From positions 32,001-96,000 of IMG/VR virus record IMGVR_UViG_3300032138_000942: a DNA stretch of 64,000 nucleotides; one strand, 5' to 3'. A program made the position numbers and the translations under genes. Source of the stretch: a virus (taxonomy: Duplodnaviria > Caudoviricetes). Positions 7,999 to 32,430 of this stretch are shown piece by piece; the stretch's first letter is position 1; each line of letters begins with the position of its first letter. The notes below the pieces were generated by a model, which was given only the letters and a program-made list of their open reading frames with translations, searched no databases and was not told the DNA's origin.

Positions 7999-8037
7999 TT
8001 TAACTAATTATTTTGTGTTTTGGAGATAAATTAAGTC

Positions 8038-9875: not shown

Positions 9876-11507
9876 ATGAGTATTAAACGCTACATAGCTG
9901 ACGCTGACAACACAATTACGAACGCCTTTAAGGCTAGTCTTACCACTCGTGGAACAGGCTCTAATATGGGCGCCTCTGACGTTTTAGAGGTATTCTCAAT
10001 TTACGGACAAGTATCCAGTTCTGCGCCAGTTGGCTATACTGAGGAATTGGCGAGAATTCTCATTCGCTTTCCAGTTGATGATATCGCCACAGATCGAACT
10101 AATAAAAATATACCAGCCAGTGGAAATGTTTCTTTTTTCCTTAGAATGTACAATGCCAAACACTCTTTTACATTGCCCACTGACATGAAATTGGTTGTTG
10201 CCCCACTTAAGCAGTATTGGGAAGAAGGCTTCGGTCTGGATATGGAAGAATATACTGATCTCACATATGATGGCTCAGGGTCTAACTGGCTTAGAAGGGC
10301 CACCTCTTCTGCAGGAACCCTGAGTTGGGACGGGATCGGAGGAGACTATTACGATCATACCCATCTGGGAACCAACTACACCGTCAACTTTGCTCATGGG
10401 TGGGAAGACATGGAGGTGGATATATCCGGACTAGTTGAGGAGTGGATTGCTGGCACCAAAACCAATCATGGAATAATTATAAAGCTTACTGGATCACAGG
10501 AAGCCTTTTCGGACACCGAGAGTTCAACCGCTGTTCTCCTTAACGACACGGGCTCTAAACGATCTTACTATACTAAAAGATTTTTCGCTCGAACAAGTGA
10601 ATATTTCTTTAAGCGCCCTTGTATTGAGGCTCGCTTCGATGAGTCGATTAAAGATGATCGAGGAAATTTTTATTATAGTAGCTCGTTAGCACCAAAAGAT
10701 GATAATGTGAGTCACCTTTATCTTTATAATTACGTGAGAGGTAAACTGGCCGACATCCCAGGTATTTCTTCGGATTACAAGGGAGAGATCTATGTCTCTT
10801 TCTTCTCGGGGAATTTGGCCAACTCGGCAGCCACCGAGAAGGGAGGCCCCATTGAGTGTGTGGATACCACGGGGTTCGTAAACCAGCCGAATCCGTATGT
10901 CGTGTCAGGCGGCTATGTTTCTACTGGAATTTATTCTGCTTCAGTATGCCTCACGGCAGCATCCGATCCTTTAACACGGATCTACGATGTCTGGTTCACG
11001 GGCAGCATCCAGGTCGGAAACCCGACTATGGACAATGCTATAATTTTTAAAACAGGAAGTTTTGTGCCGAACATTTTGAGTAGTTCCCCCATTTATGAGA
11101 CACCTCGTTACAGCACTAAAATTACTAACTTAAAAACACTTTATGGATCTAATGAGAAGCCTCGTTTGAGAGCGTTTGTCAGAACCGTCGGAGAAGATTA
11201 CAATATTTACACCAGAGTTAACGCCGAGGCACAAAATACTATTATTGAAGACGCTTGTTATAAGGTTTACAGATTGACTGACGATTTAACGGCAGTAAGC
11301 TACGGAACCGGCTCCTCTCCTGGTGTAACAGGGTCAAAAGAAGATTATACTCGCCTTTCTTTTGACGTTTCAGGGGGGTATTTCGACTTTGATATGTCCC
11401 TCCTTGAAAAGGGATATGGTTATGGTATTAAATTCGCTTACTATAACGGAATAGAGTATTTAGAACAACCGGAGATTTTTAAATTTAGGATCGAAGACAA
11501 GTCATGA
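9876..11507 (+). CDS. Putative virion protein with DNRLRE-like beta-sandwich domain
   Basis: Pattern ADADNTI…N.G…ARILIRF…WEEG…W…DISGLVEEW…NHGIIIK…RP resembles DNRLRE/disaggregatase-related domains; lies in the baseplate cluster. Confidence 0.6.
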   Translation: MSIKRYIADADNTITNAFKASLTTRGTGSNMGASDVLEVFSIYGQVSSSAPVGYTEELARILIRFPVDDIATDRTNKNIPASGNVSFFLRMYNAKHSFTLPTDMKLVVAPLKQYWEEGFGLDMEEYTDLTYDGSGSNWLRRATSSAGTLSWDGIGGDYYDHTHLGTNYTVNFAHGWEDMEVDISGLVEEWIAGTKTNHGIIIKLTGSQEAFSDTESSTAVLLNDTGSKRSYYTKRFFARTSEYFFKRPCIEARFDESIKDDRGNFYYSSSLAPKDDNVSHLYLYNYVRGKLADIPGISSDYKGEIYVSFFSGNLANSAATEKGGPIECVDTTGFVNQPNPYVVSGGYVSTGIYSASVCLTAASDPLTRIYDVWFTGSIQVGNPTMDNAIIFKTGSFVPNILSSSPIYETPRYSTKITNLKTLYGSNEKPRLRAFVRTVGEDYNIYTRVNAEAQNTIIEDACYKVYRLTDDLTAVSYGTGSSPGVTGSKEDYTRLSFDVSGGYFDFDMSLLEKGYGYGIKFAYYNGIEYLEQPEIFKFRIEDKS

Positions 11508-14500
11508 GTTTAAAAGACTTATTTAAGCAAGGAAATATTTCAAAAATTCTTGTGGCTAAAAGTGCCGAAGAGATCGGAAAAGAAGCCGAATCCGAGAGAT
11601 ATGTGTGGTCCAGAAAAGAAGAGAGAAACCGCCTTATTCCTCAAATCGACTTCTCGGATCCAAAAAACTTTGCTAAATTTGGTTCTGCTGAAGAATATTA
11701 TGTTCAATCGATTAAGAGAATATACAGCACCTATCCATATGATGGGTCTCGTTATGAAAAGCAGGCTTGGGAAAATAGCTCTTCTTATTTAGACTTATAT
11801 GTTTTCGAGGAGCTTTATCCACGAACCACAGGGCATGCCATCTTTTCTCCCGATAATGCCGGAAACGGATGGGGAACTATTTCCAACACCATTGGACAAT
11901 ACGACCTTCCTTCAGATCAAGAATATATCTTTTTCAAAGGTGGCCCTCATCCTAACCGGAATAGTTCAAAAATTAAAGAAGCCTTCCCCAATTTAGAAAC
12001 CCGGCAGTCGGGAAATGTTGGAGCCAATTTATATGAGTTAGCCGATCACAGAGAATCCAACCTTAAAATTGGAGGAATCGACGGGAACACAGTTGAATTT
12101 TGGCTTAAAAAGCCCAATCTCTTGCCGGATATTAATGACGGAGGCTTTGAAGTTCTCTTTGATTGTTACACCACAAGCAGCGTTTCTTCCAGCACTGACT
12201 ATGCCAGACTGAGAATTGAAATTTCCGGAGCGACCACCGACGACGCTACTGTGGGGGCGACGAGTGGTTCTCCGTTTTATGTTACTTATATGTCGGGAAC
12301 TAATGGCCTCCATCGAGAGCAAATCGGAAACATCACCGCGGAAGATGTGGCTGATGAGAAATGGCACCATTACGCCCTCACATTTAAGAATACGGGAGCT
12401 TTAGGCCCTGTCGAAGATCAACTACCTCCTATTTGGCAAAATAATAGAAAAGATATTCAAGTCAACTTTTATGTAGATGGTCGCTATGATGCCGGAATCG
12501 TTACAGGTTCTAGCGTAGATTATGTAAGTGGCGCCCTGGTGGCAAACATCGGATCCCTCGTGGCAGCGCCCTCGGCCTCCGGCATGACAGACTCGGCAGT
12601 CTTTTCGGCTACCCCTGGTAATGGCACCCTTGTGGATATGGGGTTTATGAAAGGTTATGGAAAACTATCAGGATCTCTGGACGAATTCCGATTTTGGAAG
12701 GAGGGGCGAACAGCGAGAGAAGTTGGATTAAACTGGAAAAGCCCGATTGGTGCCGGAACAAACTTGGATCTGGCCAACACCCAACTCGGAGTCTATTATA
12801 AGTTCAACGAAGGAATAACCCAAACCTCAAGTGTCGACTCGACGGTTATCGACTATTCGGGCCGTGTAACAAACGGCTACTGGACAGGCTATGTGGAAGC
12901 CGCTCGTGCCACAGGTTCGGCAATTGTAGAGTCTTCAGCTTCTGCAGAAGAATTTAAAGACCCAATTTTATACTCTTTCCACCCTAAAGTGGACAGCTTA
13001 GAGTATCATAAAAAATATGAGGGACGAGCTTACGACCTTAACAACCCCGGTAGTTTCTATAGAATGTTTCCGGACTGGATTCTGTCGGAGGACTCCGAAA
13101 GCGGACAGAATTTATTAAAATTAACACAGATAATGTCGAGTTATTTCGACACCTTATATCTACAACTGAAACAACTCCCGGCCATTAAAAATGTCCAATA
13201 TTTAAGCTCTAGTGTTGGGGCAACCGGAAGTTACAAACCTCTTCCTTTTATGGATCGAGTCTTGGAATCTCAAGGTTTTGTTACAGCCGACATGTTTGCT
13301 GACGCCACAATTATAGAAAAATATCTTGATAAAGATGATCACAAACTCTTCACTGAAAAACTGTCGGATATCAAAAATCTAATTTATCAAAACATTCATA
13401 ACAACCTTGTGAACATTTACAAAACTAAAGGAACAGAAAACTCTTTTAGAAACTTTATTCGATGCTTTGGAATAGACGAAGATTTAATTCAGTTAAACAT
13501 CTACACCAATAATCAATCATATGAAATAAAACAAAATTATCGATATCGCTCTGAACGTAAAAATTATATTGACTTCGGAACTTATGGAGATCATGAAGCG
13601 GCTGTATATCAATTTAAATCAGGATCTGCTAGTTCGGGCTTTCTTTCGGCTTCCAAGACAGCGTTTTCGGAATCGGGCATGTCTCAAACTTTTGAGTGTG
13701 AGCTTATTGCTCCGCCACCTCCAAACCCCACAGTTCAGGGAGTCTCTCTATATCCCTATATTACTTCCTCAGTTTTTGGAGTTCAGCAGGTTAATTATTC
13801 CGCGGACGGGACTGTCGATGAAGACGACACCAGTTGGGAGCTTGGTCGAACAGAAGATGATTACGCCAACTTCCAGGTATTTATAGCTCGTCCTGGAGTG
13901 GGCTCAACAACAGGCAAGTTTGTCTTAACAGGCTCAAACGCCAGCGGAATTACAGAACTCACCAGTAGCTATTATGTAGATTTGTATGATGATCGAAAAT
14001 GGAATCTCGCCGTTAGAGTTGTGCCCAAGGCTAGTCCATGGATGGACACCGTGTCGGGAAGCGAACCCCAAGGGGACGAGGATGGTCTTGGATATCGAGT
14101 AGAATTTTATGGGGTAAATTATGATGCTAATACCGTGAGGGACAGTTTTTATTTGACCGCATCTTTAGCCCCACAAGCATCATCGGCTGATACGAATGAT
14201 GCCCGAGGAGATGGCTTCTTACAAAACGGCAAACGAATGTATATCGGAGCTTTAAGGACTAACTTTACAGGAGCAGTGGTTCAACGAACAGACCTCAAAA
14301 TCTCTTCGACGAGAGCCTGGATGGGGAATATTTCCAATGAAGTTGTTAACGCCCATGCTATTGATGCTTCTAACATCGGAACTCTACGCCCTTATGAAAG
14401 CGCCTATTTGTTTGAAAACAGTGCCTCTTACGCCCTCAGCCCGGTGAGCCCGATGTCAAAAACAAACCAGGGAAGCAACCAATATGTCCCAAGTATCGCC

Positions 14501-17500
14501 ACTTTAGCTCTTAACTGGGACTTTAAAACGCTTACTGGCTCTTCAGGCGGCGGAACGTTCTCAGTATTGGACGCTTCTTCTGGATCTACGGCAGATATCG
14601 GTCGTTATGGTTGGTTAGGAAATATTCTAGAAATGCAACACCCAGGAAAGGGAAGCTTTTTCCGAAACAGTCAAACTAACGTTGTCGACACAAATTACTT
14701 AAACTCGGCCAAACAACTTGACCCTGAATCAGTTAATAGCTTGGATATGGTTGAAATATTAAGTCGAGATGACACTTATTTCACCCGAGAGACTCGGCCC
14801 ATTAACTATTATTTCATGCTTGAAAAAAGTATGTATCGAACCATTACGGAGCAGATGTTGAATTATTTCGGAACGATTAAGGATTTTAATGACTTAATCG
14901 GAAGTCCGGTTTATCGCTACAGGAAAGAGTATAAAGCGATGGAAAAACTTCGACAGCTTTTCTTTGAGAAAGTTGGGAACACACCGGATCTCGATAAGTA
15001 TATTGAGTATTATCGATGGCTTGACTCCGCAATTGGAACCATGGCTGAACAACTTTACCCAGCTTCAGCAGACCACACCCAAGGCCTCAAAACAGTTATT
15101 GAAAGCCATGTTTTAGAGAGGAACAAGTATCAGTATAAGTATCCCTCCATCGAACGAGGACGAGACTATGATAAAATCGGAGAAGGGGAGTCCCAAATCC
15201 GATTTGCCGCTGGGCAAACAATGAGAGAGACGGTGGGTAACTGGTTTACTTATGGATATCCCATAAAACTAAATCCTCTTGACCTTGCCGCGGCCCCCAA
15301 CTGGTGGAACGCCCGAGCAGAAAGAGACAAAACACCAGAAATTACTTCGGGAGTGGCCAGTGTTGATGTTCTAAGGGAAATATATAGAAAAATTATCTAT
15401 AACCCCAAGACTTTGGCTTTAGGGGCGTACAACTACAGAAGAGGGACAAAAACTAATTTAAATGATGTTTATAATCCCCCCACGGCCAAGTCCGGACCAT
15501 CCAGAGCTTATCCTCAAACTCGTCTAACTCACGGTTTCGCCAATGGGGCGAACTCATTTAGAGACAGCAGTTCAGATCTTATCAAGCCAGATCTTCAACT
15601 TGAGTCCGGCTCCGTCCCTGACCTGAGATATAATCAGTCACCAGATGTTCAACCAAGCCCCCTTCATGACGTCGATGTTAATCTTGAAAGGTTCCCTAAA
15701 ATTAAAATTGAGCCGAAAATAAATATATTAGATGAGGAGCGAGCAGAACGAAATCAAATTAAAACGATGGAAGGGCTCCCCTCTTTGTATAGTAGTAGTC
15801 TGGGCCTTCGGTTTGCCAATATTCAGCAAGATGTCTCTCATGGCGCTGAGGTCCCCCTCCAAGGTCCTTTTGTAAAAAAATATGTTGGAGGATACGAAAG
15901 TCGGAATGTGCCGATCAGCACAGCATCTCAAGGCTCCTCGGATAGAATCGAAAGATTTAGAATCTCCGCGCCCGCCAGTGATCTAGTTGCTTCAACTGCC
16001 GCTTCTTTGGCTGATATTTTAACATTAGCTGGCTTCAGCGATAATGATAAATTTACAGTTAACATACCCTCCGCCATGGGAGGCACCGGCACAGATATAA
16101 CTATCAAAATGGTGGGTGGAACCCCATCAGCCGCCACCTCGAACCAAGTAGAAATTAGCACAGCGGGAACCGTCGCCGCAATTCTTGCCCGATTTGTTAT
16201 TGCTATTGCTGGAGGCACTCCGTCGCCTTCCACCTCTGTCGCATATGGAGCGGGATCCGGCGATGTAACTAATGGTGTGGCAGGCATCACCGCCGCCCTC
16301 GGGACCAGCCCGACGCTAACTGTAACTGCAACTAATACGGGACGAGCAGGAAATGACATTATTTTCACAGATGTTGTGGGAACAATGGTCGCTGGTGGAT
16401 CCCACGGATCATCCCCGGCCTATCTGATCGGTGGCGTCGGCGGCGATGTTTATATTTACCCCCCAACCAAGACAAACGCTGGCGTTGAGAACTTACACTT
16501 GCCTCGTGCTGATATTAATCGAGGAACTCGACGACCTTACAATATTCGTAATATCCAACAATTAACAGCTTCCGCCTTACAAACATCGACGGTGCTCGGA
16601 AATTACGAAGAGAACTATCAAATTGTAATGACATCAGGTCGAAGCATCAACGACCCATGGTTTGCTAAAAACTCCGGCAGCATCGGAAGCACCACTCCTG
16701 AGATGCCATTTTTAACTGGAACATTGAATTATGAAATTCCAGTGAGAACAGTTGTTAAATCAATTATAGTGGAGCGCTTTTCTAGTCCGGGAGGGTTTGA
16801 AGTTCAATCACTTGGCTATCTCGACCCTCAAGCTGAAGAAAAATCTGTCTACAACGCGTTACCCTTCAAGAATCGAATGGTTCTAAACGGATCAGGCAGT
16901 TCAGATTGGACAACCACAGAAGACAACGACAGAACTCATTTAGGAATTTATACAAACATTCATTCCGCTTCCGGCGATGGTTATAATCTACTCTCTAGTC
17001 GCCATTGTGGCAAATTCGGAATTGATAGTGTTTATGGAACGATCCGAGCCAATGACTATGACACCGTTCCATCATATCAGAACGTTCCTCGAAACACCTT
17101 ACACACTCTTAAATATAGTAATACGGCCTTCAGTGACGCTCTTGTGGAGTACAACTCTCTAAACTACATCACCGCCTCAGTTTATAATAACCTCTTTTAT
17201 AATGCCCCCATTCCCCAAAGTGAGCTTCAATATGCTTGGATCAGCGCATCATTAGAAAGCGCTTCTATTCACCCGTTGGTGGGCTATACATCAAATGGTC
17301 GAGTGTTTAACGGGCTAGTATCGGGATCCAATGGGTTTGAAGATCCCATTCACTTTTATAAAGGAGAGGAAGCCTCAGCTTATTACGGCGGATATCCCTC
17401 CGATTTGGTCGGCCTTAATACTTTAGTGGTCGACACTATTTTAACAGCAAGTAATCTTATCTCAGCATCGACGACCACAGATTATAGAAACACCGCTTTC

Positions 17501-20500
17501 GCCACTGTAACTGATGGGCAGCAATTCATGGTTTTGATGAATCATAGAAACGCGGGCCTACAGGCCCCGAGTTGGAAGTTAACTTTTAAATCTTCTAATC
17601 CGTTGGTGAGAAAACAACGAGAGAATAACTTAATTAATATTCTCGAATATAAAACACTTCCCAAGCCTTATAAAGGGGACACAACGACTAATCTGAATTT
17701 AGATAACTTAAATCAAATACCACAGACAAGAGTCGTGAGACAATACATCGTGCCAGCCCCGACAAGCAAGTTTAAGCCACTAACGTTGACTCTTGTGAAT
17801 AAAGATGGCACAGGCCCCGAGATGACCGTAAAGACTACTTATTCCAATAATTTTGATTTTATGACCACCCCAGAAATCGATTTGAAACTTGGCCTGAGTC
17901 AAACTAATCAGCAGGAGTTTGACACAATCAAAAATTCAGGCGATCTTTCAATTTGTAAATTGATTTATCCGGAGACGATTTATCCTAAAGAGCAATACAC
18001 TTATTTGGCAAAGGTTCGTGGAAGAATTTCTTACTTCGAGTCCAGCGCAAGTGTTGACTTTAATCGGCAATTGGGGACACAAAGAACCTTCTGGAGAGAT
18101 ACTCCTAAAAACAGAAGACGAAGCAGCGACCATCAAGCTGTAAATTCACAAGGAATTCTTCTTTATCAAGGAGTTGGTTCGGCTTCTGTGGACGCGGGAT
18201 CAGGAGAGCTTTATAATCAATTCCGAGAATATTCGTGTGCCCTGTCTGTTTGGCCTCTTGATGCCGGCTATTTAAGTAACTCTTACGGTGAAGAATTTGC
18301 CAACTATTGGTATGACCCCGCGGGAGGAGACACTCTTGCCCTAGAGCCCCCTCAAGGGGCCTGGTACGACCAGCCTAACGGTGAACTTCTGACGCCCACA
18401 ATCAACCAGCTTTTGGCAGCAGTTTCACAAGAAGAGTTCCCAAGCGTGGATGATGACTATGATTGGAGAGGCCCCGTAACGGCGTCCCAGCAGCTTCTCT
18501 ATCCTAATAAATGGACGTCCAATCTCTCCGAGTCTGACGGAACTGTGGGAAGTAATCGTGGATATGACCAACGATATTTAACTTATAACTTTTATCGAGC
18601 AGACTCTCAATCCGGCAATCGTCCCTGGCTAGATTCATATGATGAATACGCTTCGGACATTAGAGTTATGGCTCAAGGCCACACTGTTCTGCCCGAGTTT
18701 AGAATTTCCGAACATATGGAATATTATATTGACAACGGGTTTGACTTCAATAATAAGTTTTTAACTTTGGCAGGAGCAAATATATCGGCCAGCGCCAATA
18801 CTGCCACTTCTAGTTATAATGAAGACTTCTTTAAGATATACTCTCATTCTGACTTCATGAAACACTTTGCCGCCCTGGATACTGCCGACAACAAGCTTTC
18901 GAGAATGACACTTAAATGCCACGGAATTAAAAAATTGCTTCCATATAATGGATTTTATCCAGCCCTTCGAACCACTCAATTAGGGAGTATGTTCTCTCAG
19001 TCATTTGGTCCATATATTTCAGGCTCCACGGCGGCTCAAACCGGCTCTTACGATGGGGAACGTATGAAGTCTATTCTTCAGCCTTTCTTCGCTCCTGGGA
19101 TCATGTACAACACAATTAAATCAGGTATCGCTGTTGACTTTCCCGTTTATACTGGCTCGATAGGGGGCGGAAGCTCATTCCTGGGCCGGTTCAGAAGACT
19201 GAGTGTGGCAGAGGGGTCTTTTTATAATTATAGAATGCCGTTTGAAGCCATTGTTGAACCCCAAAGATATCTCCCAGTCGACAACCCAACGGATTCCACC
19301 TCCGCTGCCATTTCCTTTCTTTATAATTGGACCGGCAGCACAGGCGTGAATCCCCCTATTTTTCCAGAACAAATATATGGGTCATGGACAGGAGAGTCGG
19401 ACTATAATTATAATTTGGCGATGAACAACTTCTTGGCGGAAGTTCCCAAGTTTTTCTTGAAAGACGGGAGCTTCACAACTTTTACATCAAAACCAGAAAA
19501 TCAATTTAAAACAATGAAGTCTGGGTCGACTTATTATATGGATGTCGTATTGGCTAAAACCTCTAAAATGATAATGGCTCAAGGACTGGGCAATGTTCCC
19601 CTTTTAGAGGTTACAGCGAGCGACGACAGCAGCAAAGGCCTTGTGGGTAATGATTTCCATGGACAGATCTTTGGACCAGCGTGTGAATACTTTAGAACAT
19701 CTGATGATATTCCTCATCCGAATTATGCTTCTGGCCAAGGTGCATATTATGCCGACACCATTTGTCAGGCAGATCCAGGGTTCGCCCCTCATACTCCCCC
19801 TTATTTTTACGGAGACGCCATAGCCAGAGTTTCTTTCACGCCAGAAAATCATGTGGTTCTTTTGGAAGGGGAAAGTAAATTCTTTACTTTAGATGAGATA
19901 TTAGCAGGTTGTAAAATCGACACCATTTACACATCGAGTTACACAGAGAATACCAATTGGCTACAGTTTGCTGTAAACAACTCTTATCCCGCTGGCTTAT
20001 CACAAATGAGATTATCCTCCTCAGTTAACCTTTTTGGAAAAAGCAGTATTAAAAAGGTAACCTATCAAGCTAATGCTCAAGAAGAGGGCAAGTTTGTGGC
20101 AGACACTGCCGAGGATCCCTCCGATTCGTCTTTTGATTTGTGGACCATTAGTCCTAAATTCGAATGTCCAGTTATAAATGTCTCATCGTCCACAGCTTCG
20201 GGCTCAGCCTACTCAACGTTGAAAGAAGCCTCCTTTGGTTATCAAACTGGCGATAGTGACGATCTATCAAACAAGCAAGGTCAATTTGGAGACATCACCT
20301 CAGTTAAATCTGTGTGGGGCCAGTATGGCACCCCCCCAAGTTCGTCCGAGGGAATTTTCCTCAAGCTCAAAGAAAGCTATCCAGACGTCTTAGAGGATCC
20401 GTCTTCAGGAGCACAGACCACGGGCTCGCTCATTGACATCTGTGGATTTCAACAGAGCACGAAAAGAGTTGGAGAGCTATCAGCAGAAAAAACAATTTCT

Positions 20501-21259: not shown

Positions 21260-21306
21260 TTTAGTTGATGTTAAAAGTTATAAAGCTGGATAATTATTGA
21301 AAGAAT

Positions 21307-22320: not shown

Positions 22321-25247
22321 TGGCGTATCAGGATTATAAAAATTCACTTGTAAAATTAATGAATCCTCGAATTTTTATCGAAGGAACGCCCACTGCTCCT
22401 CTGGCGACTGTAGATTTCGAAGCAGAAATGCTCATTTCGGGAATCAACGGAGTGTATAATCTTCAATCTGGGTGGTTTTTTGATTCCTATTTTAATAAGT
22501 CTTTGGTGGTGTATGTTTTTCAAATTCAGGATACAGAACAGTTTAATTTGCTTCAACAAATGAACATTAATGATTTAGCAACCTTTCTTTACGACATAAA
22601 AAAGAATCTTGCCCATCAAGCCGCCACCACCCCCAAGTTGGATGCCTCTGACATTGAAAAGCTCGGATTTGCTTACGACGATAAAGGAAACAAGGTTTAT
22701 AAAATCCCCTTTAATCTAGATAAACCATTTCAATTGACACCAAACTCCCCAACTTTGGCTTATATTTTCCTCCCAGTTGTGGAGACGGGCACAAAGCCGG
22801 TTTTTGGAGGAGCTATTTGGAAAGAGGCACTTCGTAATGGAGATGTGGCAACAGAGACTAAACAATATGTGGTCAGTCCCACTAATGCCGAGCGGCTCCC
22901 CAGGACAACCGTCGAACAAAAACATTATCATGTTTATTCTATTGACGATAGCGGGAATGGCACAGCCACCTCAGCTTTTCCAGAAGGAGCAAGCCCCACC
23001 GCGGAAAACTATAACGAATCTGCCCAACACCAGCATAACGTTGTTAACGGAAAAGTCCAGTCATCCGTGTCCACCGTAACTGGCAAGGCCCACATTCATG
23101 AGCTAGAAGATGTTTCGGTCGTTTCTAAAGAAAACACAGGGGTGGTTAAAGTTTCCGTTGTTTCAAAAGAACACCTGGGCGATCTTTTGGGCGAAAAAAC
23201 CCCACTCCAAAAAGAGGTGCCCATGCTTCGAACGCCAATTGGAACAGTGCCCACTGTGCCGTCACTAGTGGGAAATTTAAGTAAAACGAATATTTTAAGA
23301 GAAATGAACCGGATGCCCATGTTTTCAGAATTAATGCTTTCAAAAAACGAACAAAATGTAAATGTCTTTATATTTGGCATTAATTTGAATCAGGTTATCA
23401 AGAAAAGCACAGTGTTTCCACACTTGTCACCTTCTAGTCCCCTTAAACGACAATTGGTCTCTAATTCACGAATATCTTCACTTAAGGTTTATCGGATACA
23501 AATAGGCGCTGGAGATAAAACACCAGAAGTGAACTCATTTGAATCACCTTTTTTGGTGGCCAGTTCGCTCGATGGTCCGGTTTCGGGGGTCCTTGAAACA
23601 CAAAAACGATATCTCAACCACCAGAATCAGGTCACCATCCCAAAAACATCCAAGGCCGCGGCGAAGCTGAAATACATCGGAGAGATCCGGCAGATAAACA
23701 TTCCAAATATTAATCCAGGGGTTAGACATTATCAAGTAACGGACCACAATTCTTCCACTTTAATCAATGGGAATTTTAAATATTATGTTGAGGTGGAAAT
23801 CGAAGATGCCATCTTCGCCGCCCTTACGGGAGCAATTCAAAAACTGAAATCCTCAGAGACTAATCTGAGCACGTATTTAACCACAGCAGAAGCTAATTTT
23901 GATCCAATAAGTCAACGATTTAGACCTGACTTCGTAAACGAAACCCACAAAAATTCTAATTTTATGGGGGAGCTATCCAACTATGCCAGCACTTACATTA
24001 ACATACTTTCCTATTTTTCTTCAACAGTCAATATTACTCCCAAACTAGTGATGGGCCTATTGGATCCGAAGACTGCAACCTTGACCACTATAAGTCGAGT
24101 TGTTGAGGCTCACAACACTTTAATTGAGTTTATAAACTCTATATTAAACAAGTCTGTGGGAGGGGAAACCAAGAAGACCGCCGTTGAGGGTATTCGTGCT
24201 GATGAGTCGGGAAAGAACTCTCTTAAACGAAAAATTGAATTGATCCACAACTTTAATAATAACCCCTTTTTAAGATCGGTCATGAGCCCTCGGTCGGTGG
24301 GATATGCTTTTTTTGACAGGGTTGACTCGCCCCAAGCAGCCATCAACTCGTTCCCTCACATAAGCACGACCCAGCTAAGAAGCAGGTTCCAAAAAGAAAT
24401 AAAAAAAGTAAATTTACCTTCGGGAGGAGAAAACATTACTATATTAGGAAAACAGGTCCCAATTAACTCGGTGGGAGAACTCACCCCTTCAAGAGTATTG
24501 TTGGGATCCCCGGAAGACAAGCTCGTTAACACTTCAAGTAATTTAGAAAATCTTAATGTAAATTTACAAATAACTCAAATAAACGACAATGACAATATAC
24601 ATGTGACCCAAAAAAGATCAACAGAAGAAGAAACACTCAGTAACTTATATAAATGTAATCATGATAATAACATGTGTGTTCAGGAGGCCACCCAGATCGA
24701 GGGCTGTGTACAATCCCATTCTCTGGTGGATGTCGTGGATGACAAAACAGAAATGACCCAACCAGGAGAAGACACAACTCAGATAGAGAAAGAAATACAA
24801 AGTAAAGAACATACCAACTTGGCCAACTTGACTCTTTTAGAGGGCTTGTTCAATGCTTCTTTTTCGAATAACCCCTTTATAAAAAATAGCCAATTCGTCT
24901 CAGAAATTAAAAAAATGACCCAAGAAGAACTGAATACTCTTCCTTTTCACATTTTAGCTTTAGCTCCCCAGGCATTGTCCCCAAAGCCAACCATTAATTG
25001 GTCTCAAGCTTATCAAAGTTATATGAACGTATATAAGATGGAGGTTTTCAATGGTTATGAGGTCTTGGGAGATGGAGAGTGTTCTGTCCTTTCTCCAATT
25101 TTTCAAGAAGTAACAAGCCTAGATCAGGTTAAGAGTCCATCAATTTGTCGATTGGTAAGTTATGAAAATGCTTTACTAAAAGTTGGGAAAGAAGAGAGGC
25201 TTTCACTCCCACTAATTGGGACTTATTTTCTTGGAGGCGGTGAATAA
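22320..25247 (+). CDS. Hypothetical protein (975 aa) with a small HxH-repeat insert
   Basis: Long ORF coupled by TAATG at both ends; HYH, HQH and HIH motifs. Confidence 0.55.
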   Translation: MAYQDYKNSLVKLMNPRIFIEGTPTAPLATVDFEAEMLISGINGVYNLQSGWFFDSYFNKSLVVYVFQIQDTEQFNLLQQMNINDLATFLYDIKKNLAHQAATTPKLDASDIEKLGFAYDDKGNKVYKIPFNLDKPFQLTPNSPTLAYIFLPVVETGTKPVFGGAIWKEALRNGDVATETKQYVVSPTNAERLPRTTVEQKHYHVYSIDDSGNGTATSAFPEGASPTAENYNESAQHQHNVVNGKVQSSVSTVTGKAHIHELEDVSVVSKENTGVVKVSVVSKEHLGDLLGEKTPLQKEVPMLRTPIGTVPTVPSLVGNLSKTNILREMNRMPMFSELMLSKNEQNVNVFIFGINLNQVIKKSTVFPHLSPSSPLKRQLVSNSRISSLKVYRIQIGAGDKTPEVNSFESPFLVASSLDGPVSGVLETQKRYLNHQNQVTIPKTSKAAAKLKYIGEIRQINIPNINPGVRHYQVTDHNSSTLINGNFKYYVEVEIEDAIFAALTGAIQKLKSSETNLSTYLTTAEANFDPISQRFRPDFVNETHKNSNFMGELSNYASTYINILSYFSSTVNITPKLVMGLLDPKTATLTTISRVVEAHNTLIEFINSILNKSVGGETKKTAVEGIRADESGKNSLKRKIELIHNFNNNPFLRSVMSPRSVGYAFFDRVDSPQAAINSFPHISTTQLRSRFQKEIKKVNLPSGGENITILGKQVPINSVGELTPSRVLLGSPEDKLVNTSSNLENLNVNLQITQINDNDNIHVTQKRSTEEETLSNLYKCNHDNNMCVQEATQIEGCVQSHSLVDVVDDKTEMTQPGEDTTQIEKEIQSKEHTNLANLTLLEGLFNASFSNNPFIKNSQFVSEIKKMTQEELNTLPFHILALAPQALSPKPTINWSQAYQSYMNVYKMEVFNGYEVLGDGECSVLSPIFQEVTSLDQVKSPSICRLVSYENALLKVGKEERLSLPLIGTYFLGGGE

Positions 25248-28200
25248 TGAACGGCTACAACCCCCCATTTGATCTTAAGAAGGCTTTTAAAGAATTTGTA
25301 GAAAAAACTGAAGCTTCTAAAGAGTTTAAAAAAGTAGAAACAAACCCAGGCAAAAAAGGCCCCGCCGTTGTAGAAAAAACTGAAGCTTCTAAAGAGTTTA
25401 AAAAAGTAGAGACAGCACCAGGCAAGAATAACAATGTTTCCCCTCAAGATATCCCTTTCGAGACCATAGCTCAGATTGCCGAGTTCAACGCCAAGCCACT
25501 CCCCCAGGCACCATCGGTGTTTGGCCCTCGATTTTTTAATGCCGGAACGCTCGTTAATGATAATACTCATCCCGACGTGTGGCCGATGTTAAAAACCTCG
25601 TTACAGTTGGACTCGACGAATTTTAAATACATTGCCTGGAGCCAGCCAAGTAAGTTAGTAAAGGTGGACCACGGACGACTCTATACTGGAAATACGTGGA
25701 CAACTTCTCGCCCCTTAAACGCCCAACCAGGCTCCCAGGCCTCCCTGTTGTTGATGAAAGATCTGCTTGGTCCGCAACAAAACTATGGAGCGCCAAATGG
25801 AGTCACTATCGTTACAAAGGATTTTGTAGATGTGGTCAAGCTTCCCTTCACTTTAGAAATAAAAGATGCTATAGTTTATTTAAATGAAAACACTTTTTCT
25901 AAACTTTATGAGAATAATAATATGGCAGAAAGGCTGGTGTCTCTCTATTATGGCACTCCCTCATACACAGTAAAGGTCTGGGCCAACCCTTCAGGTCTTG
26001 GCTGGTCCCTAGACAATACAGTCCACGAGCCAGATCCTTCAACAGGAGTGGGAACAATTGTTGGGGATAAAAACACCTGTGTCAAAGAGTCCTTTCTGTT
26101 CAGGGTGCCGCCCAACACCCCTAACGATACGGGACCATATCGAGATCAGCTTCAAGCATTACGATATTTAAGGACTAAAGTGGCACAGTCATCTGGGGCG
26201 ACTAACGGGATGTGGTACGACCATGTGTGTGAATATGACACTCCCGCCTTCACTGATAATTTTCAAGAAATCACAAGCCAACTCACCACGGAACGATCTT
26301 TAAAGATAGAGTCTTCGGCCACCTATAATTACTATAAGCCGGGATACGAGAAAGTTATCGCCCCCACTGAATTCTCTCACAATTCGTTACCCGATTATAA
26401 TATTATGGCGGCCCACCAAAGATGGTCCCCATCTCAGAAAGCAATGCTGGAGACTTTTGATAATGACGAAAGCATGGTTAATAATTCAGATTTCAATGCT
26501 TATTATAAATATGTGTCATTGGAGGCCCAACTAGATAGCGATATTGAAAAGCCATTTGCCAACTATGGGTCTTTACAAGGAAACACATGGTATTATCTGG
26601 ACAAATGGACCAAGGTTATGGAAGCTGGATATCCTAATCAGTGGTTCGATAAAAAGTATAGTAATTTAACATTCCCTGCTTTCGCCATGATGGATCATTG
26701 CTTAAAAGAACTTCCGGGAGGAACCATTAATCAGTATCCCATGTTTAACCACATTCGCCTGAAACTGCCTAATTCTAAGCCAGTATCTCCCAACACTACT
26801 GAGGACTCACCCATGAAGTGGAATTATAAAATGTTCACTGGCGTAGAAGATGGCATAAAACGACAGTCTCTAGACTTAGCCTACTTAAGCCGTTTTAATA
26901 AATACCAAGAGGGAACAAAGGCTGGAGGACCCCAGGTTTACCCCACTTTTGTTCAAGGAGATTCGGCTGTTAATCCCTGGAGCGAGGCTCAATATTGGAA
27001 AGACTTGAGCCCTGTGAAGGGGAATTATGTTCAGCCTTATAAGTCGGGGCTGGAGTGGAAATACACCACTACTGGGGGTCACGATGGGGACCTCCACACG
27101 GCCATGGATTTCATCAAGTTTTTGGGGAATTTATTAAAATTTGGGTCTAGACTTTATGGCTACACGTATGGCCTCCTTAATGATCCCTGGCCCGATTCGT
27201 TGCCGTTTTTAATGAGCAACAATAAAAATGTGGAAGTAGCTTTACAAATGATAGAACCAAATTGGATAGGCGGACACAATAATACACTAGATAACTGGCT
27301 TGACCGCCTAACTCCCTATCTGAGACGAACTAGGAGTTTTTCTGAAATACTGGAAGGGAAACTCGCCCCCTCTATCACCCTTGGTTTTAAAATATTAAAA
27401 TATGGTTTTGACGCCCAGGGGAACAGGACACCCGATCCTATTTCAACCTATTTTCTTTCCAACACCAATGATCTAAAAGAGCAAAAAAATAAATATTTTG
27501 ATTTTTACGACACACGAGTAAAATACGGAGAAAAATATCAATATGATATTGTTGGACTACACCTGATCCTGGGCACTCGTTACGCCTATACTCATGTGGG
27601 TGACAAAGTTATAGAGGGCGACCCCACCGGTGACATAGGTCCTTTGAATAGTTGGCACAAATTTACAGCAGAAGTAACATCGTGGCCAGATATCAAAATA
27701 GTAGAGCTTCCTTATCAGAATAATATCGTCCTCCGAATGATGGACAAGCCACCTTTGGCACCGGAAATCGAGCCGGTTCCATTTAAAGGGGTCGATAACA
27801 AATTACTCTGGCTTATTCGTCCTCAATATGGCTCTAGAAAAGAGGTTCCTATTTCTATTTTACCCCAAGACACAGGGATTTTCAACAAACAATACGAAGC
27901 CCAATACGGGGGTGTCGTTGGACAAGGAGAATTTTCAAGCGGAACGGGACAAATGGCCGAACAAGAACAGTGGGCTGAAAAGCAACAGGGCTTCGCTGAG
28001 ATCGGGATTACCCCATTGGAATTTAAGGGAGACGACCTTACCCAAAAATATCAAATGTTTAGGCTGTCTACACCGCCTAAGAGTTATGGATCCTTCGCTA
28101 ACGCCGAATTGATAACTGAAATATCAAGCGAAAGATCGACCTCAACAAGCTTTCTCGATACTTTGACCCCAAATCACAAATATTATTATACTTTTAGATC

Positions 28201-28750
28201 GATAGATGTACACAATAATTTGTCTAATCCGTCACCAATCTATGAAATAGAACTGATTAATGATTTGGGGACAATCTATATCGTTACTAAAATATATGAC
28301 TTCCCGACAGAAGTAAAAGTGGGATCTAAATCAGCAAAAAGGTTTATCGCCATCCAGCCCGCTTTAAGCCAGCGGCTTCTAAATATGTCCGCGACAGGAC
28401 TTGAATCAGGCGAAAACGGCGAGATGACCACGGATGGGAAAAGCATGGAAATAAAATTGGGTCTCGATAATGAACTTCTGTTTGGGGGAAATAAGAGGAT
28501 TAAGATACGACTTAATTCCAAAAAGACCAATCGAAAGATCGACTTCAATCTGGACTTTAATTTAAAAAATGTTCAAACCGAGGAGAGCTTAGAACCCGAT
28601 GAATGGAAGTGGGCACCTGATAGTGCCACTACTGGGCAAATACCAGCATCCCCTCCACCCCCGTGTGGAGAAGGTCAGATTTATAATGATGAAACGGGAG
28701 AGTGTGAAGACATCGTGACCACCCCAGAGCCCGATGACGATAAGTGCTAA
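25247..28750 (+). CDS. Hypothetical virion protein (1167 aa) with a possible FnIII-like segment
   Basis: FLDTLTPNHKYYYTFRSIDVHNNLSNPSPIY resembles an FnIII C-terminal strand pattern; N-terminal 24-aa duplication. Confidence 0.55.
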   Translation: MNGYNPPFDLKKAFKEFVEKTEASKEFKKVETNPGKKGPAVVEKTEASKEFKKVETAPGKNNNVSPQDIPFETIAQIAEFNAKPLPQAPSVFGPRFFNAGTLVNDNTHPDVWPMLKTSLQLDSTNFKYIAWSQPSKLVKVDHGRLYTGNTWTTSRPLNAQPGSQASLLLMKDLLGPQQNYGAPNGVTIVTKDFVDVVKLPFTLEIKDAIVYLNENTFSKLYENNNMAERLVSLYYGTPSYTVKVWANPSGLGWSLDNTVHEPDPSTGVGTIVGDKNTCVKESFLFRVPPNTPNDTGPYRDQLQALRYLRTKVAQSSGATNGMWYDHVCEYDTPAFTDNFQEITSQLTTERSLKIESSATYNYYKPGYEKVIAPTEFSHNSLPDYNIMAAHQRWSPSQKAMLETFDNDESMVNNSDFNAYYKYVSLEAQLDSDIEKPFANYGSLQGNTWYYLDKWTKVMEAGYPNQWFDKKYSNLTFPAFAMMDHCLKELPGGTINQYPMFNHIRLKLPNSKPVSPNTTEDSPMKWNYKMFTGVEDGIKRQSLDLAYLSRFNKYQEGTKAGGPQVYPTFVQGDSAVNPWSEAQYWKDLSPVKGNYVQPYKSGLEWKYTTTGGHDGDLHTAMDFIKFLGNLLKFGSRLYGYTYGLLNDPWPDSLPFLMSNNKNVEVALQMIEPNWIGGHNNTLDNWLDRLTPYLRRTRSFSEILEGKLAPSITLGFKILKYGFDAQGNRTPDPISTYFLSNTNDLKEQKNKYFDFYDTRVKYGEKYQYDIVGLHLILGTRYAYTHVGDKVIEGDPTGDIGPLNSWHKFTAEVTSWPDIKIVELPYQNNIVLRMMDKPPLAPEIEPVPFKGVDNKLLWLIRPQYGSRKEVPISILPQDTGIFNKQYEAQYGGVVGQGEFSSGTGQMAEQEQWAEKQQGFAEIGITPLEFKGDDLTQKYQMFRLSTPPKSYGSFANAELITEISSERSTSTSFLDTLTPNHKYYYTFRSIDVHNNLSNPSPIYEIELINDLGTIYIVTKIYDFPTEVKVGSKSAKRFIAIQPALSQRLLNMSATGLESGENGEMTTDGKSMEIKLGLDNELLFGGNKRIKIRLNSKKTNRKIDFNLDFNLKNVQTEESLEPDEWKWAPDSATTGQIPASPPPPCGEGQIYNDETGECEDIVTTPEPDDDKC
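25296..25410 (+). repeat. 43-bp exact direct repeat with 72-bp period inside the CDS
   Basis: ttgtagaaaaaactgaagcttctaaagagtttaaaaaagtaga at 25296-25338 and 25368-25410; encodes VEKTEASKEFKKVET twice. Confidence 0.9.
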
Positions 28751-28780
28751 AGGATAATAATTAATTTTTGTGTTACAAGA

Positions 28781-28808
28781 ACTATTTAAGAGGACGAACC
28801 TACTTATA
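28781..28808 (+). promoter_or_regulatory. Putative late promoter motifs ACTATTTA (28781) and CCTACTTA (28799)
   Basis: Recurrent intergenic motif; see finding. Confidence 0.6.
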
Positions 28809-28830
28809 GTATAAAAAGAGGAGTAAAAAC

Positions 28831-29796: not shown

Positions 29797-29801
29797 GAAT
29801 T

Positions 29802-30857
29802 ATGGCAAACGTATTTAAAAGTGTAAACGCTGACGACATCACAGTTACAAGAACCCCTCTTCATGAGGCCATCCCACTTTCGGGAACAATCGTATCGGGA
29901 ACATATCCCGAAGATCAAGGGACCTCACACACCAATATCAAGAATTATTCCCACGGAATATTCGAGTCGGTTTATGACTATCCCTATCTCAGTTCATCGG
30001 CCAATCATATTTTTGACCTTAGTTTTGGATATAGTGCTAATTCTACCATTTCCCAGTCGGTATCACCAGATGTGACCGGATATGCTGGCTTTCAGCAGGA
30101 CAAAAAGATTAATATTTACAATGAGATGGCCCAGGTTTTGATGGGGCACGATGCCACAGGGTCCATTAAAGAGTTCAAAATCCCTGGGGGCGATTATATT
30201 CGGGAAGCAGTCTTTGTTAGTTTTGCTCGGCTTTTATCTAAAGATGAAATTGACAAGAACAACTGGTCGTGGAAGCTGAATAAAAAGCTTGCTTATGCCT
30301 GGACAACAGCCCGAGCAGAGATGATTCTTGATGAGATAACTCTCCCCACTTCCAATAACGAAACAGTGTTCTATACAGACTCGCCAGCAGGCGAATATTC
30401 CGTTTTGTCTAGTGCCATGTCTGGAAATGTTGGACTACTGTTCTATCAGGCCGGCATTGCTGTTCTCGGAACATCTTCTATTTCTCAGTTGACCGGAACG
30501 ATTCTTGGTGGCGGAAACATTTATAACACCATGATTAGTTCTTCGATCAGCGCCTCTTGTGATAGTTTCCGACACCACTGGGCAACACAGAACTTCAACA
30601 ATACGACAGAGTTGAATTCAACAATTTATTTCTGTCGAGCAAACCACAACCAGTTCAATTATAGTGCTAATCCCACCTATTTGACAGGTAGTAAAATTCG
30701 AGTAAAGGCAAGTAGTCTGGACCAGCCAGTCTCATATGTCACCACTGTCGGCCTTTATAGTGCTGATAATGAACTACTCGCCACAGCGAAACTATCCGAG
30801 CCCCTCAAAAAGACTCCTGATACTGAATTGACGCTGAGAGTTCGACTGGACTACTAA
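29802..30857 (+). CDS. Virion structural protein with tail-collar-like C-terminus
   Basis: C-terminal YVTTVGLYSADNELLATAKLSEPLKK…RVRLDY. Confidence 0.6.
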   Translation: MANVFKSVNADDITVTRTPLHEAIPLSGTIVSGTYPEDQGTSHTNIKNYSHGIFESVYDYPYLSSSANHIFDLSFGYSANSTISQSVSPDVTGYAGFQQDKKINIYNEMAQVLMGHDATGSIKEFKIPGGDYIREAVFVSFARLLSKDEIDKNNWSWKLNKKLAYAWTTARAEMILDEITLPTSNNETVFYTDSPAGEYSVLSSAMSGNVGLLFYQAGIAVLGTSSISQLTGTILGGGNIYNTMISSSISASCDSFRHHWATQNFNNTTELNSTIYFCRANHNQFNYSANPTYLTGSKIRVKASSLDQPVSYVTTVGLYSADNELLATAKLSEPLKKTPDTELTLRVRLDY

Positions 30858-30884
30858 AGTGCTAAAAACTTTATCGATCACCTA

Positions 30885-30892
30885 ACTATTTA
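30885..30892 (+). promoter_or_regulatory. Putative late promoter ACTATTTA
   Basis: Intergenic, 26 nt before the start codon. Confidence 0.6.
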
Positions 30893-30918
30893 ATTTAACA
30901 AGGTATAGGTGGATTTAG

Positions 30919-32430
30919 GTGTCTTATTATAGGTTCAAAGAAAACGATATTTTTACCAATACTATAGTGGCTCACCCCCACAGTAGTTTTATGATCTACA
31001 GCGGGAGCGTTTACTATAGAAACACTCCATATGAGAGTGGAAGTATTTTTTATGGGAATGTCACACATGTTCCGGTCGGAGCCATTAGTCTTTACGAAGT
31101 GAACGTTGACCGCCCCGAGAGCGATCATGATTACGATTATGAGAACAACACCGGAACCAAGACCATGATTCATCCCTTTGTGGTGAAAAGTGGTGACAAC
31201 ATCAAATTTAAAACCATCTCCACAGGGTCTTACAATGAAGAAGACTGGGGATCAACTCTCACATCGAGCTTCAATTACCCCCTCTCAGCCAGTCTATCTA
31301 GAGATTTATATCCTGAAAAGCATTTGGCCAGTGCAATTAATTACAGCGCCCAACACAATCTGCAGCTGTCACCTCATGAGTATGATGCTTATAGCGTTGA
31401 TTCGGAATCCGAAGACGCCGGGATCGTTACAGTTTCTAGTTCATATATAGAAGCCCTAAAGAACACTTTGAACTATTACACCCCTCTGAGCGACCAATAC
31501 GCTTTTACTTCTTCTGCTCGAAACGGCGCCGACACAACTGATCAATTCCCGACAGGAACACCCTATTGGGATAAAGGCGTTCAACCCATCAACCTGATTA
31601 GCATCCCTTCGATTTATTATGGAGAGTCAATAAAAAGAGGCTCAGTGAGTGTTAAGTTTTATATTAGTGGAACTCTGGCTGCTGAATGTGCTGATGTTTA
31701 TGAAAATGGAGAATTAATTGAGGTAAGCGGGACTTACGACCGCTTCGAATCGGGGTCTATTGCAGGAGTCGTGCTTTATAATGAAGGTTTTCTCTTACTG
31801 ACAGGCAGTTGGGACATCAGCGCTGGCCATCAAGCACCTTATACTGGAGGCTCCGCCACGAGCCCTTCATGGCTTTACTGGGGCGTTGGGATCACTTCAA
31901 GCCTCAATGCCACCGGATCCCTTGTTCCCGCTGGTTATCAAATAGGCTCAAAGGCAACTTTTAATGGAAGTGTGGACTACACTAAATCCCCCGGATATAA
32001 CCTCCCCTCATCGAGCTTTTCGCTGGATTTTCAGGGAGTAGAGCATATTCCTGTGAAAACTATGTTGGCACACGCCCCTATTGGAGAGCTTTATTATTCG
32101 AATAACCCCACCTTTACAGTGGCCAACACCGCTTCGCTGGGAGATGAGCCAGCAGATTTTGGTGTGGCTCATGAGAACTTTATATCCGGCTCTATTCAAA
32201 AGGCCGTAACGGGCTCCACCTTTTATATTGAAGATAAAGATCTAGAAATTAAAAACATTAACAGCAGTTCTTTTCCCAATTATACGGCTAGTTTTGAGAA
32301 AACAACTTATATTTCTAAAATAGCTCTTTACGATGATCAAAAAAATATTATTGGAATAGCAAAATTGGCCCAACCGGTTAAGAAGACGATCAACAGGAAT
32401 CTTACATTTAAACTTAAGTTGGATCTCTGA
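30919..32430 (+). CDS. Virion structural protein, paralogue of the 29802 protein
   Basis: C-terminal YISKIALYDDQKNIIGIAKLAQPVKK…KLKLDL; shares G.(L/V).Y..G and YS.NPT segments with ORF 29802; GTG start. Confidence 0.6.
   Translation: MSYYRFKENDIFTNTIVAHPHSSFMIYSGSVYYRNTPYESGSIFYGNVTHVPVGAISLYEVNVDRPESDHDYDYENNTGTKTMIHPFVVKSGDNIKFKTISTGSYNEEDWGSTLTSSFNYPLSASLSRDLYPEKHLASAINYSAQHNLQLSPHEYDAYSVDSESEDAGIVTVSSSYIEALKNTLNYYTPLSDQYAFTSSARNGADTTDQFPTGTPYWDKGVQPINLISIPSIYYGESIKRGSVSVKFYISGTLAAECADVYENGELIEVSGTYDRFESGSIAGVVLYNEGFLLLTGSWDISAGHQAPYTGGSATSPSWLYWGVGITSSLNATGSLVPAGYQIGSKATFNGSVDYTKSPGYNLPSSSFSLDFQGVEHIPVKTMLAHAPIGELYYSNNPTFTVANTASLGDEPADFGVAHENFISGSIQKAVTGSTFYIEDKDLEIKNINSSSFPNYTASFEKTTYISKIALYDDQKNIIGIAKLAQPVKKTINRNLTFKLKLDL

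Follow-up and report, generated by a model that had tools for sequence, protein, structure and literature searches.

Short tripeptides rich in serine and threonine recur in several virion proteins encoded by a 64,000-nucleotide stretch of viral DNA (hereafter the window), and the question that this locus raises is what they are for. The window comprises bases 32001-96000 of the 123-kb single-contig virus record IMGVR_UViG_3300032138_000942 (Duplodnaviria; Caudoviricetes), which is ~70% complete, and the long open reading frames (ORFs) of the window all lie on the + strand. An initial annotation, made from the sequence by eye, had proposed that the tripeptide [ST]-[GAS]-S marks outer virion proteins as a pervasive, virion-wide sequon for a glycosylation-like modification. 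The analysis described below leads us to a narrower proposal, namely that [ST]-[GAS]-S may be an O-glycosylation sequon on a subset of virion proteins, read by soluble transferases that the phage itself encodes; on the sequence data at hand, we judge the chances of this to be about even.

The window codes for a gp23-type major capsid protein (gene 58048-59784, +; Pfam Gp23, E 5.8e-74) and for tail fibres, and PHROG profiles identify a portal, a large terminase, a gp25-like and a gp6-like baseplate wedge protein and a sheath. The T4-like (gp23-type) set of gp23 capsid, gp20 portal, gp17 terminase, gp6/gp25 wedge and contractile sheath is present. Among cultured phages, those closest in capsid protein are Flavobacterium phage vB_FspM_immuto (50%; hereafter immuto), Microcystis phage Mel-JY01 (50%) and Rhodothermus phage RM378 (43%). 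The phage belongs to an aquatic lineage that is distantly T4-like.

A directional tripeptide is over-represented in six virion proteins

Expected motif counts were derived from composition-preserving shuffles, applied to whole proteins and also inside blocks of 20 or 40 residues. Six proteins proved to be motif-rich: the 543-, 3251-, 503- and 351-residue proteins, the capsid protein and the 437-residue neck protein. When pooled, they contain 102 copies of [ST][GAS]S against 24.4 expected (z 16.8), with z ranging from 2.7 to 11.4 across the six, and this excess is unchanged under 20- or 40-residue block shuffles. The counts made by eye in the initial annotation were exact (13 in the 543-residue protein, 17 in the 503- and 6 in the 351-residue protein, 5 in the neck protein, and several dozen, now counted as 55, in the 3251-residue protein), and its description of the motifs as isolated rather than gathered in low-complexity runs was borne out. 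Among the 109 ORFs of the genome only these six carriers and, weakly, the tail sheath stand out, the remaining proteome being near expectation (76 vs 66).

When every tripeptide was ranked without preselection, TGS headed the list (22 vs 2.9), and each of the six variants of the motif was enriched 3- to 7-fold. The enrichment is limited to S (52 vs 13.7) and T (50 vs 10.3) at position 1, to G (5.9x), A (4.2x) and S (3x) at position 2, and to Ser alone at position 3, where [ST][GAS]S reaches 4.25x against 1.2x for [ST][GAS]T; the same positional profile is found independently in proteins of immuto and Mel-JY01. The motif also has a direction. T-x-S outnumbers its mirror S-x-T by 54 to 14, the mirror motif is not enriched, and in a comparison of permutations TGS (28) far exceeds SGT (6), GST (11), GTS (4), STG (5) and TSG (4). 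Hydrophobic residues are frequent on both flanks, with fractions of 0.53 at position -1, in agreement with the earlier remark that such a residue often precedes the motif, and 0.51 at position +3, against a background of 0.32. Since the codons used are mixed, with Ser codons of both the AGY and TCN families, the signal lies at the protein level and a DNA-level word can be ruled out as its source. Other sequons are not enriched in the six proteins, as seen for D[ST][AILVMT] (22 vs 20.6, z 0.3) and N-x-[ST] (48 vs 56.8).

Carriers are mostly unrelated and do not include the fibres

The carriers are distributed along much of the window. The 543-residue virion protein is encoded just 3' of gp6 (9876..11507, +; 13 vs 2.5, z 6.9) and has no Pfam or PHROG match. 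The adjoining gene codes for a giant virion protein of 3251 residues (11504..21259, +; 55 vs 13.5, z 11.4), which likewise matches nothing in Pfam or PHROG and has no internal repeat detectable by BLAST; its motifs are spread over the first ~3000 residues, with zero in the last ~250. Further downstream lie the genes for the 351-residue protein (29802..30857, +; 6 vs 2.2, z 2.7) and the 503-residue protein (30919..32430, +; 17 vs 3.5, z 7.4), the latter being the densest carrier with 3.4 motifs per 100 residues. These are followed by the capsid protein (6 vs 1.5 for the whole protein, z 3.9), whose motifs fall in a central insertion (residues 150-260; 58495..58827, +), and by the 437-residue neck/head-tail adaptor protein (gene 60498-61811; 5 vs 1.2 for the whole protein, z 3.7), where they fall in the N-terminal half (residues 1-202; 60498..61103, +). 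The gene for the 1032-residue tail sheath starts at the end of the window (63247..64000, +) and runs on to genome position 98345.

The initial annotation had also listed copies in the sheath and the fibres. For the sheath this was upheld, if modestly (9 vs 3.6), whereas the fibres are at chance level. The 975- and 1167-residue "fibres" (22320..28750, +), neither of which matches a PHROG family, contain 1 copy against 2.6 expected and 0 against 2.0, and can serve as internal negative controls; across 80 related loci their families are depleted of the motif (0.61x and 0.51x, respectively). Two further fibres of 932 and 269 residues (7 vs 5.2; 3 vs 1.2) and a 2512-residue protein (6 vs 6.2) are also at chance. 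As had been noted by eye, the motif is absent from gp6, gp25, the terminase and the portal and occurs once each in the primase and SbcC, the replication proteins being at chance level. The motif is thus neither pervasive nor virion-wide, and with four fibres lacking an excess it cannot be said to mark outer virion proteins in general.

By BLAST the carriers are dissimilar to one another except for the last 43 residues of the adjacent 351- and 503-residue proteins, and with no internal repeats in the 3251-residue protein either, a repeated domain or paralogy can be rejected as the source of the motif. The 351- and 503-residue proteins are distant paralogues (hhalign probability 99.1%, E 7.6e-19) that have one motif column in common. 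That the carriers are otherwise non-homologous points to a reader acting in trans.

The 351/503 family matched nothing in PHROGs and Pfam, nothing meaningful in PDB profile searches and nothing in Foldseek at E <= 0.001; it falls only into unnamed viral clusters in the ESM Atlas, and a wide VIA-align comparison gave scattered matches to phage neck and tail proteins with a best Z of 4.7. The family is multi-copy: Mel-JY01 has five consecutive genes (357, 352, 954, 718 and 591 residues; L109:3247-12193) whose products have a conserved C-terminus of ~80 residues in common, immuto carries two (L107:7233-9323), and some metagenomic homologues are fused to Laminin_G_3 (P0026, P0032, P0101). Such an organisation suggests a constant anchor domain to which variable outer parts are joined. 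Separately, the giant 3251-residue protein ends in a proline-rich tail (...SPPPPPDPPTPPSP..., window 21100-21259, +), and PPP ranks third among the over-represented tripeptides of the enriched set (8 vs 0.6).

Motif sites are conserved and, in capsid, sheath and neck, lie in lineage-specific regions

Alignments of homologues revealed that individual motif sites are held in place. The 503-residue protein has >3,000 homologues, many of them marine and metagenomic, and 119 of the 120 examined are enriched in the motif (observed/expected 4.7). At residues 115, 123, 278, 295, 364, 449 and 456 the motif is kept in 73-97% of homologues, and substitutions at these sites remain in-class (S/T, G/A/S, S). 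The 351-residue family (n=79) contains 615 copies against 174 expected (3.5x), with conserved sites at residues 64 (99%), 224 (82%), 246 (65%) and 295 (66%). For the 543-residue protein, all 12 family members in the relatives are enriched and the sites at residues 27, 205, 268, 354 and 478 are kept in 8-11 of the 12; some sites of this protein are retained in 9-11 of 12 genomes amid surroundings that are only ~33% identical. Such a pattern argues that purifying selection is acting on the motif sites themselves. In two low-confidence AlphaFold models (predicted local distance difference test, pLDDT, 63-66), most motifs were assigned by DSSP to coil right before or after strands, examples being a two-residue hairpin at residues 28-30 and strand ends at residue 295 of the 503-residue protein and residue 224 of the 351-residue protein.

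In carriers with a recognisable core, the motif is found outside it. All six capsid motifs sit in the variable central insertion, which is only 15-37% identical, and over the capsids of 11 genomes the insertion holds 34 copies against ~9.5 expected, as compared with 13 against ~12.7 in the conserved core. The neck protein matches the PHROG 211 head-tail adaptor Ad2 (gp13-like) over residues 203-405; this homologous part has no motif (0.2 expected), whereas residues 1-202 have 5 against 1.5. Similarly, the PHROG tail sheath profile matches only residues 666-1030 of the sheath, ~560 residues being a lineage-specific addition, and eight of the nine sheath motifs lie in lineage-specific residues 101-665 (2.9 expected), with 1 against 0.7 in the core. 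By these counts, the motif in capsid, sheath and neck is confined to lineage-specific accessory regions. In T4 structures, the regions that correspond to the capsid insertion and the non-core sheath domains presumably face outward. Of the sequon under selection that was originally put forward, what survives is a motif that seems to be selected and to behave as a signal read in trans on non-homologous proteins, within accessory regions; its virion-wide scope does not.

A 19-kb glycan island is headed by a tandem GT4 pair

A search for glycosyltransferases beyond the window identified a 19-kb glycan island (genome 7745-27166) that ends ~4.8 kb upstream of the window and is headed by a tandem pair of GT4 glycosyltransferases (genome 7745-10263). 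The island holds five glycosyltransferases in all, namely the two GT4 enzymes, a GT2, a GT11 and a CgeB-like enzyme. Its sugar genes encode WecB, five SDR epimerase/dehydratases and a DegT aminotransferase, and further genes code for a GNAT, a formyltransferase, three methyltransferases, a GDSL esterase, a PfkB kinase, a cytidylyltransferase and a cupin. Member 1 of the pair matches PF00534 with 39.7 bits (cut-off 26.4) and PF20706 with 32.8 (cut-off 26); member 2 matches PF20706 with 28.5 bits (cut-off 26) and reaches 26.2 for PF00534, just below the cut-off. Both keep EX7E (EGFGLATLE at residue 290 of member 1, EGFGLPIFE at residue 296 of member 2). At the sequence level the pair is generic, with BshA and chlorovirus B736L as the best PDB matches. 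Member 2 has >3,900 metagenomic homologues, some of which are fused to GT2 and one (P0134) to PF01973, a family that we take to include the Maf flagellin glycosyltransferases.

No Pfam family for an initiating transferase, flippase, polymerase or ligase was found in the island, and no ORF in the 123-kb, ~70% complete record has more than one hydrophobic segment, so that none of these four activities appears to be encoded by the phage record. A ThyA-like hydroxymethylase (PF00303) was likewise found in none of five genomes, this one and four relatives that are at least 90% complete, under conditions in which control genomes match. This argues against DNA glucosylation of the T4 kind, other kinds of DNA acceptor being possible.

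The word ACTANTTA sits 13-51 nt 5' of many virion genes, mostly between genes, with 23 copies on the + strand against 13.5 expected; copies lie at window positions 8003, 28781, 30885, 42878, 56413, 56900, 60471, 63205 and others (+). From this placement, it looks like a late promoter.

Motif richness and GT4 member 2 co-vary

The tandem GT4 pair and the epimerases are present in 12 of 13 long relatives of the phage and in all four of those that are at least 90% complete, the one relative without the pair being a fragment of 56% completeness. A search of 50,697 phage records found member 2 only in immuto and Mel-JY01. The marine clade made up of the phage and its relatives is motif-rich and has both members. 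The same is true of immuto (e.g. 7 vs 1.3 and 11 vs 4.1) and Mel-JY01 (e.g. 11 vs 2.0 and 9 vs 2.2), although the Mel-JY01 orthologue of member 1 (PP395634.1, 83444-84539) matches as two open frames of 198 and 313 residues, and the gene may be split, frameshifted or interrupted. The uncultured 484-kb phage LR756508 has member 1 and lacks member 2, and it counts as motif-poor (capsid 1 vs 1.1; no copy in one 351/503-type homologue and 4 vs 1.1 in the other). RM378 is motif-poor (1 vs 1.2), with member 1 present and member 2 degenerate, and because of these retained genes it had to be rejected as a clean case of neither enzyme nor motif. P-HM2 has no motif and lacks both members, and S-SSM7 has no motif on its structural proteins, member 2 being unmatched there in the search of 50,697 records.

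A capsid tree places LR756508 as sister to immuto plus Mel-JY01, with RM378 basal to them, and with this placement the pattern requires at least two co-changes. One conserved column reads T-G-S or S-A-S in the motif-rich phages, T-N-S in LR756508 and P-T-S in RM378, implying that the fold tolerates loss of the motif. Across these lineages, motif richness tracks GT4 member 2, and a search of relatives for enzymes that co-vary with motif density, as suggested at the outset, has thus given a positive result as far as the sequences go; the effect is small and the cases are few.

A candidate sequon for phage-encoded glycosyltransferases

We propose that soluble glycosyltransferases encoded by the phage would make the modification in the cytoplasm of the host. 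The tandem GT4 pair is the best candidate for reading the motif or for starting the glycan, with member 2 as the component that appears tied to the motif, and the variable downstream genes of the island (epimerases/dehydratases, aminotransferase, acetyl-, formyl- and methyl-transferases, GT2, GT11 and CgeB-like glycosyltransferase) would supply a sugar particular to each strain. Attachment is most likely to be at position 3, where Ser is nearly invariant, and the glycan would sit on accessory parts of the capsid, sheath, neck and several proteins of the baseplate region, parts that probably face outward. The motif statistics, the conservation of the sites, their placement in accessory regions and the presence and phyletic pattern of the enzymes are observed; that the enzymes act on the carrier proteins, which residue they modify and what role the glycan has, we infer. 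The group of aquatic T4-like phages concerned has thousands of metagenomic members in addition to the cultured Flavobacterium and Microcystis phages. A broader claim, that the tripeptide is a true sequon for a conserved soluble GT4 pair and that hypervariable islands thereby lay down a strain-specific coat on capsid, sheath, neck and baseplate throughout this large aquatic T4-like group, we put forward tentatively, at slightly below an even chance.

Several observations weigh against glycosylation. The strong positional conservation of the sites would equally fit a structural motif, and copies outside the conserved columns occur close to the chance rate, the excess being due to fixed sites. 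The fibres, which are the most exposed parts of the particle, have no excess of the motif. Three residues are too few to confer specificity in the cytoplasm, and phage proteins outside the virion show no depletion of the motif (76 vs 66). The interior of the island is devoid of ACTANTTA, the nearest copy of which is 205 nt 5' of the first gene and inside the preceding one, and co-regulation of the island with the virion genes through late promoters was therefore not seen. Soluble GT4 enzymes could also use host lipid-linked glycans together with a host flippase and ligase. Lastly, RM378 is motif-poor although it has member 1 and a degenerate member 2, and member 1 is also retained in LR756508. 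The link between motif and enzyme thus hinges on member 2 and on a small number of phylogenetically clustered cases, in a capsid tree with long branches and moderate support.

Many of these points would be accounted for if phi-[ST]-[GAS]-S-phi (phi being hydrophobic) were a strand-end or tight-turn element of beta-rich accessory domains, kept because it stabilises their folds or their contacts, with the island serving another purpose, such as remodelling of the host envelope through host export machinery. Sites that are position-conserved in the manner of fold determinants, the location of most motifs in coil at strand ends in the two models, the motif column common to the 351/503 paralogues and the hydrophobic flanks at -1 and +3 (0.53 and 0.51 vs 0.32) are all consistent with such an element, as are the island without a late-promoter word, the fibres without the motif and the small, clustered sample of co-variation. 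We consider this explanation, the chief rival, rather unlikely, though deserving of serious attention. Unrelated proteins carry the motif in the absence of detectable common domains, the fibres of the same phage are equally beta-rich and do without it, and so do the T4-type cores of P-HM2 and S-SSM7; moreover, the RM378 and LR756508 homologues retain the fold with P-T-S or T-N-S at the motif column. A strict Ser at position 3 combined with free exchange of Ser and Thr at position 1 would be unusual for a plain turn, and the phyletic link to GT4 member 2 would have to be coincidence.

The evidence for a reader acting in trans does not in itself require that this reader add a sugar, and the invariant Ser would suit several Ser-directed modifications, so the motif might instead be a site of phosphorylation, acylation or ADP-ribosylation by an enzyme of host or phage, or else the place where a decoration protein, chaperone or assembly factor docks. 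This we regard as improbable: the GT4 pair is the only enzyme set that tracks the motif, docking would leave the 55 copies in a single protein unexplained, and no protein kinase, ADP-ribosyltransferase or similar enzyme was found in the ~30 upstream ORFs scanned with Pfam, the rest of the genome being unscanned for such enzymes. We give practically no credence to a composition or low-complexity artefact of Ser-, Gly- and Thr-rich proteins. The carriers are indeed somewhat Ser-rich (10-13%), but z remains at 7-11 in whole-protein as well as 20- and 40-residue block shuffles, permutations of the same residues are not enriched and the motifs are isolated; global and local shuffles and the orientation of the motif together refute an origin in composition.

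Comparison with known glycosylation systems

To our knowledge, glycosylation of phage particles has been chemically shown only in mycobacteriophages, and we know of no sequence rule for it. A 2023 study by Freeman et al. in Cell Host Microbe reportedly describes glycosylation of mycobacteriophage virions by phage-encoded glycosyltransferases. Common to that system and the one proposed here are a tailed phage with soluble glycosyltransferases of its own, virion structural proteins as the proposed acceptors and assembly in the cytoplasm, which makes export machinery unnecessary. In mycobacteriophages, the glycans are located C-terminally on the capsid and tail-tube subunits (as cited in PMC12619734). 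By contrast, the candidate sites described here are internal, isolated and position-conserved tripeptides in many proteins: the capsid motifs lie at residues 160-250 of 578, and the last 30 residues contain one Thr and no Ser. The putative enzyme set is also much larger, filling a 19-kb island.

The chlorovirus PBCV-1 modifies its capsid protein Vp54 with N-linked glycans at the atypical sequons NTXT or NIPG, using virus-encoded machinery (PMC9614988). Our proposal resembles this in that a virus-encoded, host-independent apparatus would glycosylate the major capsid protein at atypical short sequons, and GT4 member 1 has weak similarity (E 4.1e-5) to the chlorovirus GT-B enzyme B736L, whose function is putative. 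It differs in that a Ser/Thr motif implies O-linkage, and in that the hosts here are bacteria and those of chloroviruses eukaryotic algae.

Among bacterial systems, GtfA and GtfB prime serine-rich-repeat (SRR) adhesins and interact via DUF1975, GtfB being a non-catalytic chaperone (PMC5796085). Like the GT4 pair, they form a cytoplasmic GT-B pair, which acts on Ser in S-A-S-type sequence while the protein is still inside the cell. Identity with this system was rejected, with no DUF1975 at E <= 0.001 in either protein and, among the NCBIfam SRR/SD-repeat models, only SdgA in the matches listed, at 17.5 bits (cut-off 800), and no GtfA/GtfB model; both members keep EX7E, so a division into catalytic and non-catalytic partners is not predicted either. 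Moreover, SRR adhesins are made of long low-complexity repeats, unlike the isolated motifs inside folded proteins seen here. In the S-layer of Lactobacillus buchneri, serines in Ser-Ala-Ser repeats are experimentally mapped O-glucosylation sites (PMC5796085). Those sites are clustered in one low-complexity stretch and thought to be modified extracellularly, whereas dozens of dispersed sites with a preference for Gly in the middle position are found here. The general O-glycosylation system of Bacteroidota is periplasmic and recognises D-(S/T)-(A/I/L/M/T/V) (PMC5796085). This, too, is a three-residue sequon, and the nearest cultured relative of the phage infects Flavobacterium; the sequence is different, however, and occurs in the six proteins at the chance level given above (22 vs 20.6). 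No [ST]-G-S sequon is among those listed in a review of bacterial O-glycosylation (PMC12645811), a search of the available literature for a published phage sequon of the [ST][GAS]S kind found none, and one on immuto and Mel-JY01 returned unrelated papers only.

Should the proposal prove correct, the sequon together with its marker enzyme would predict glycosylated virions, and the sites within them, from sequence in thousands of environmental phages, and phage "serotypes" would be inscribed in virion proteins as conserved attachment sites. A function would also be provided for the large "LPS-like" (lipopolysaccharide-like) glycan islands that aquatic phages carry and that are commonly taken to be host-directed. 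The proposal would likewise bear on adsorption and particle stability, on how grazers or host receptors are evaded and possibly on the engineering of glyco-decorated particles. Since immuto and Mel-JY01 are both cultured and carry the motif and the enzyme pair, it can be tested at the bench now.

Other genes upstream of the window

The region 5' of the glycan island encodes a ClpP-like protease (221 residues, genome 2182-2847) and a PIN-PhoH fusion (440 residues, genome 4317-5639). Next to these, a 226-residue ORF (genome 5940-6620) has a weak match to the anthrax lethal factor N/C-terminal family (PF07737, E 1.5e-7, 31.8 bits) and may adopt a metalloprotease-like or ADP-ribosyltransferase-like fold. 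On the other side of the island, directly upstream of the 2512-residue protein, a 699-residue protein (genome 29004-31103) weakly matches Amidase_2 (N-acetylmuramoyl-L-alanine amidase) and may be a virion-associated cell-wall hydrolase.

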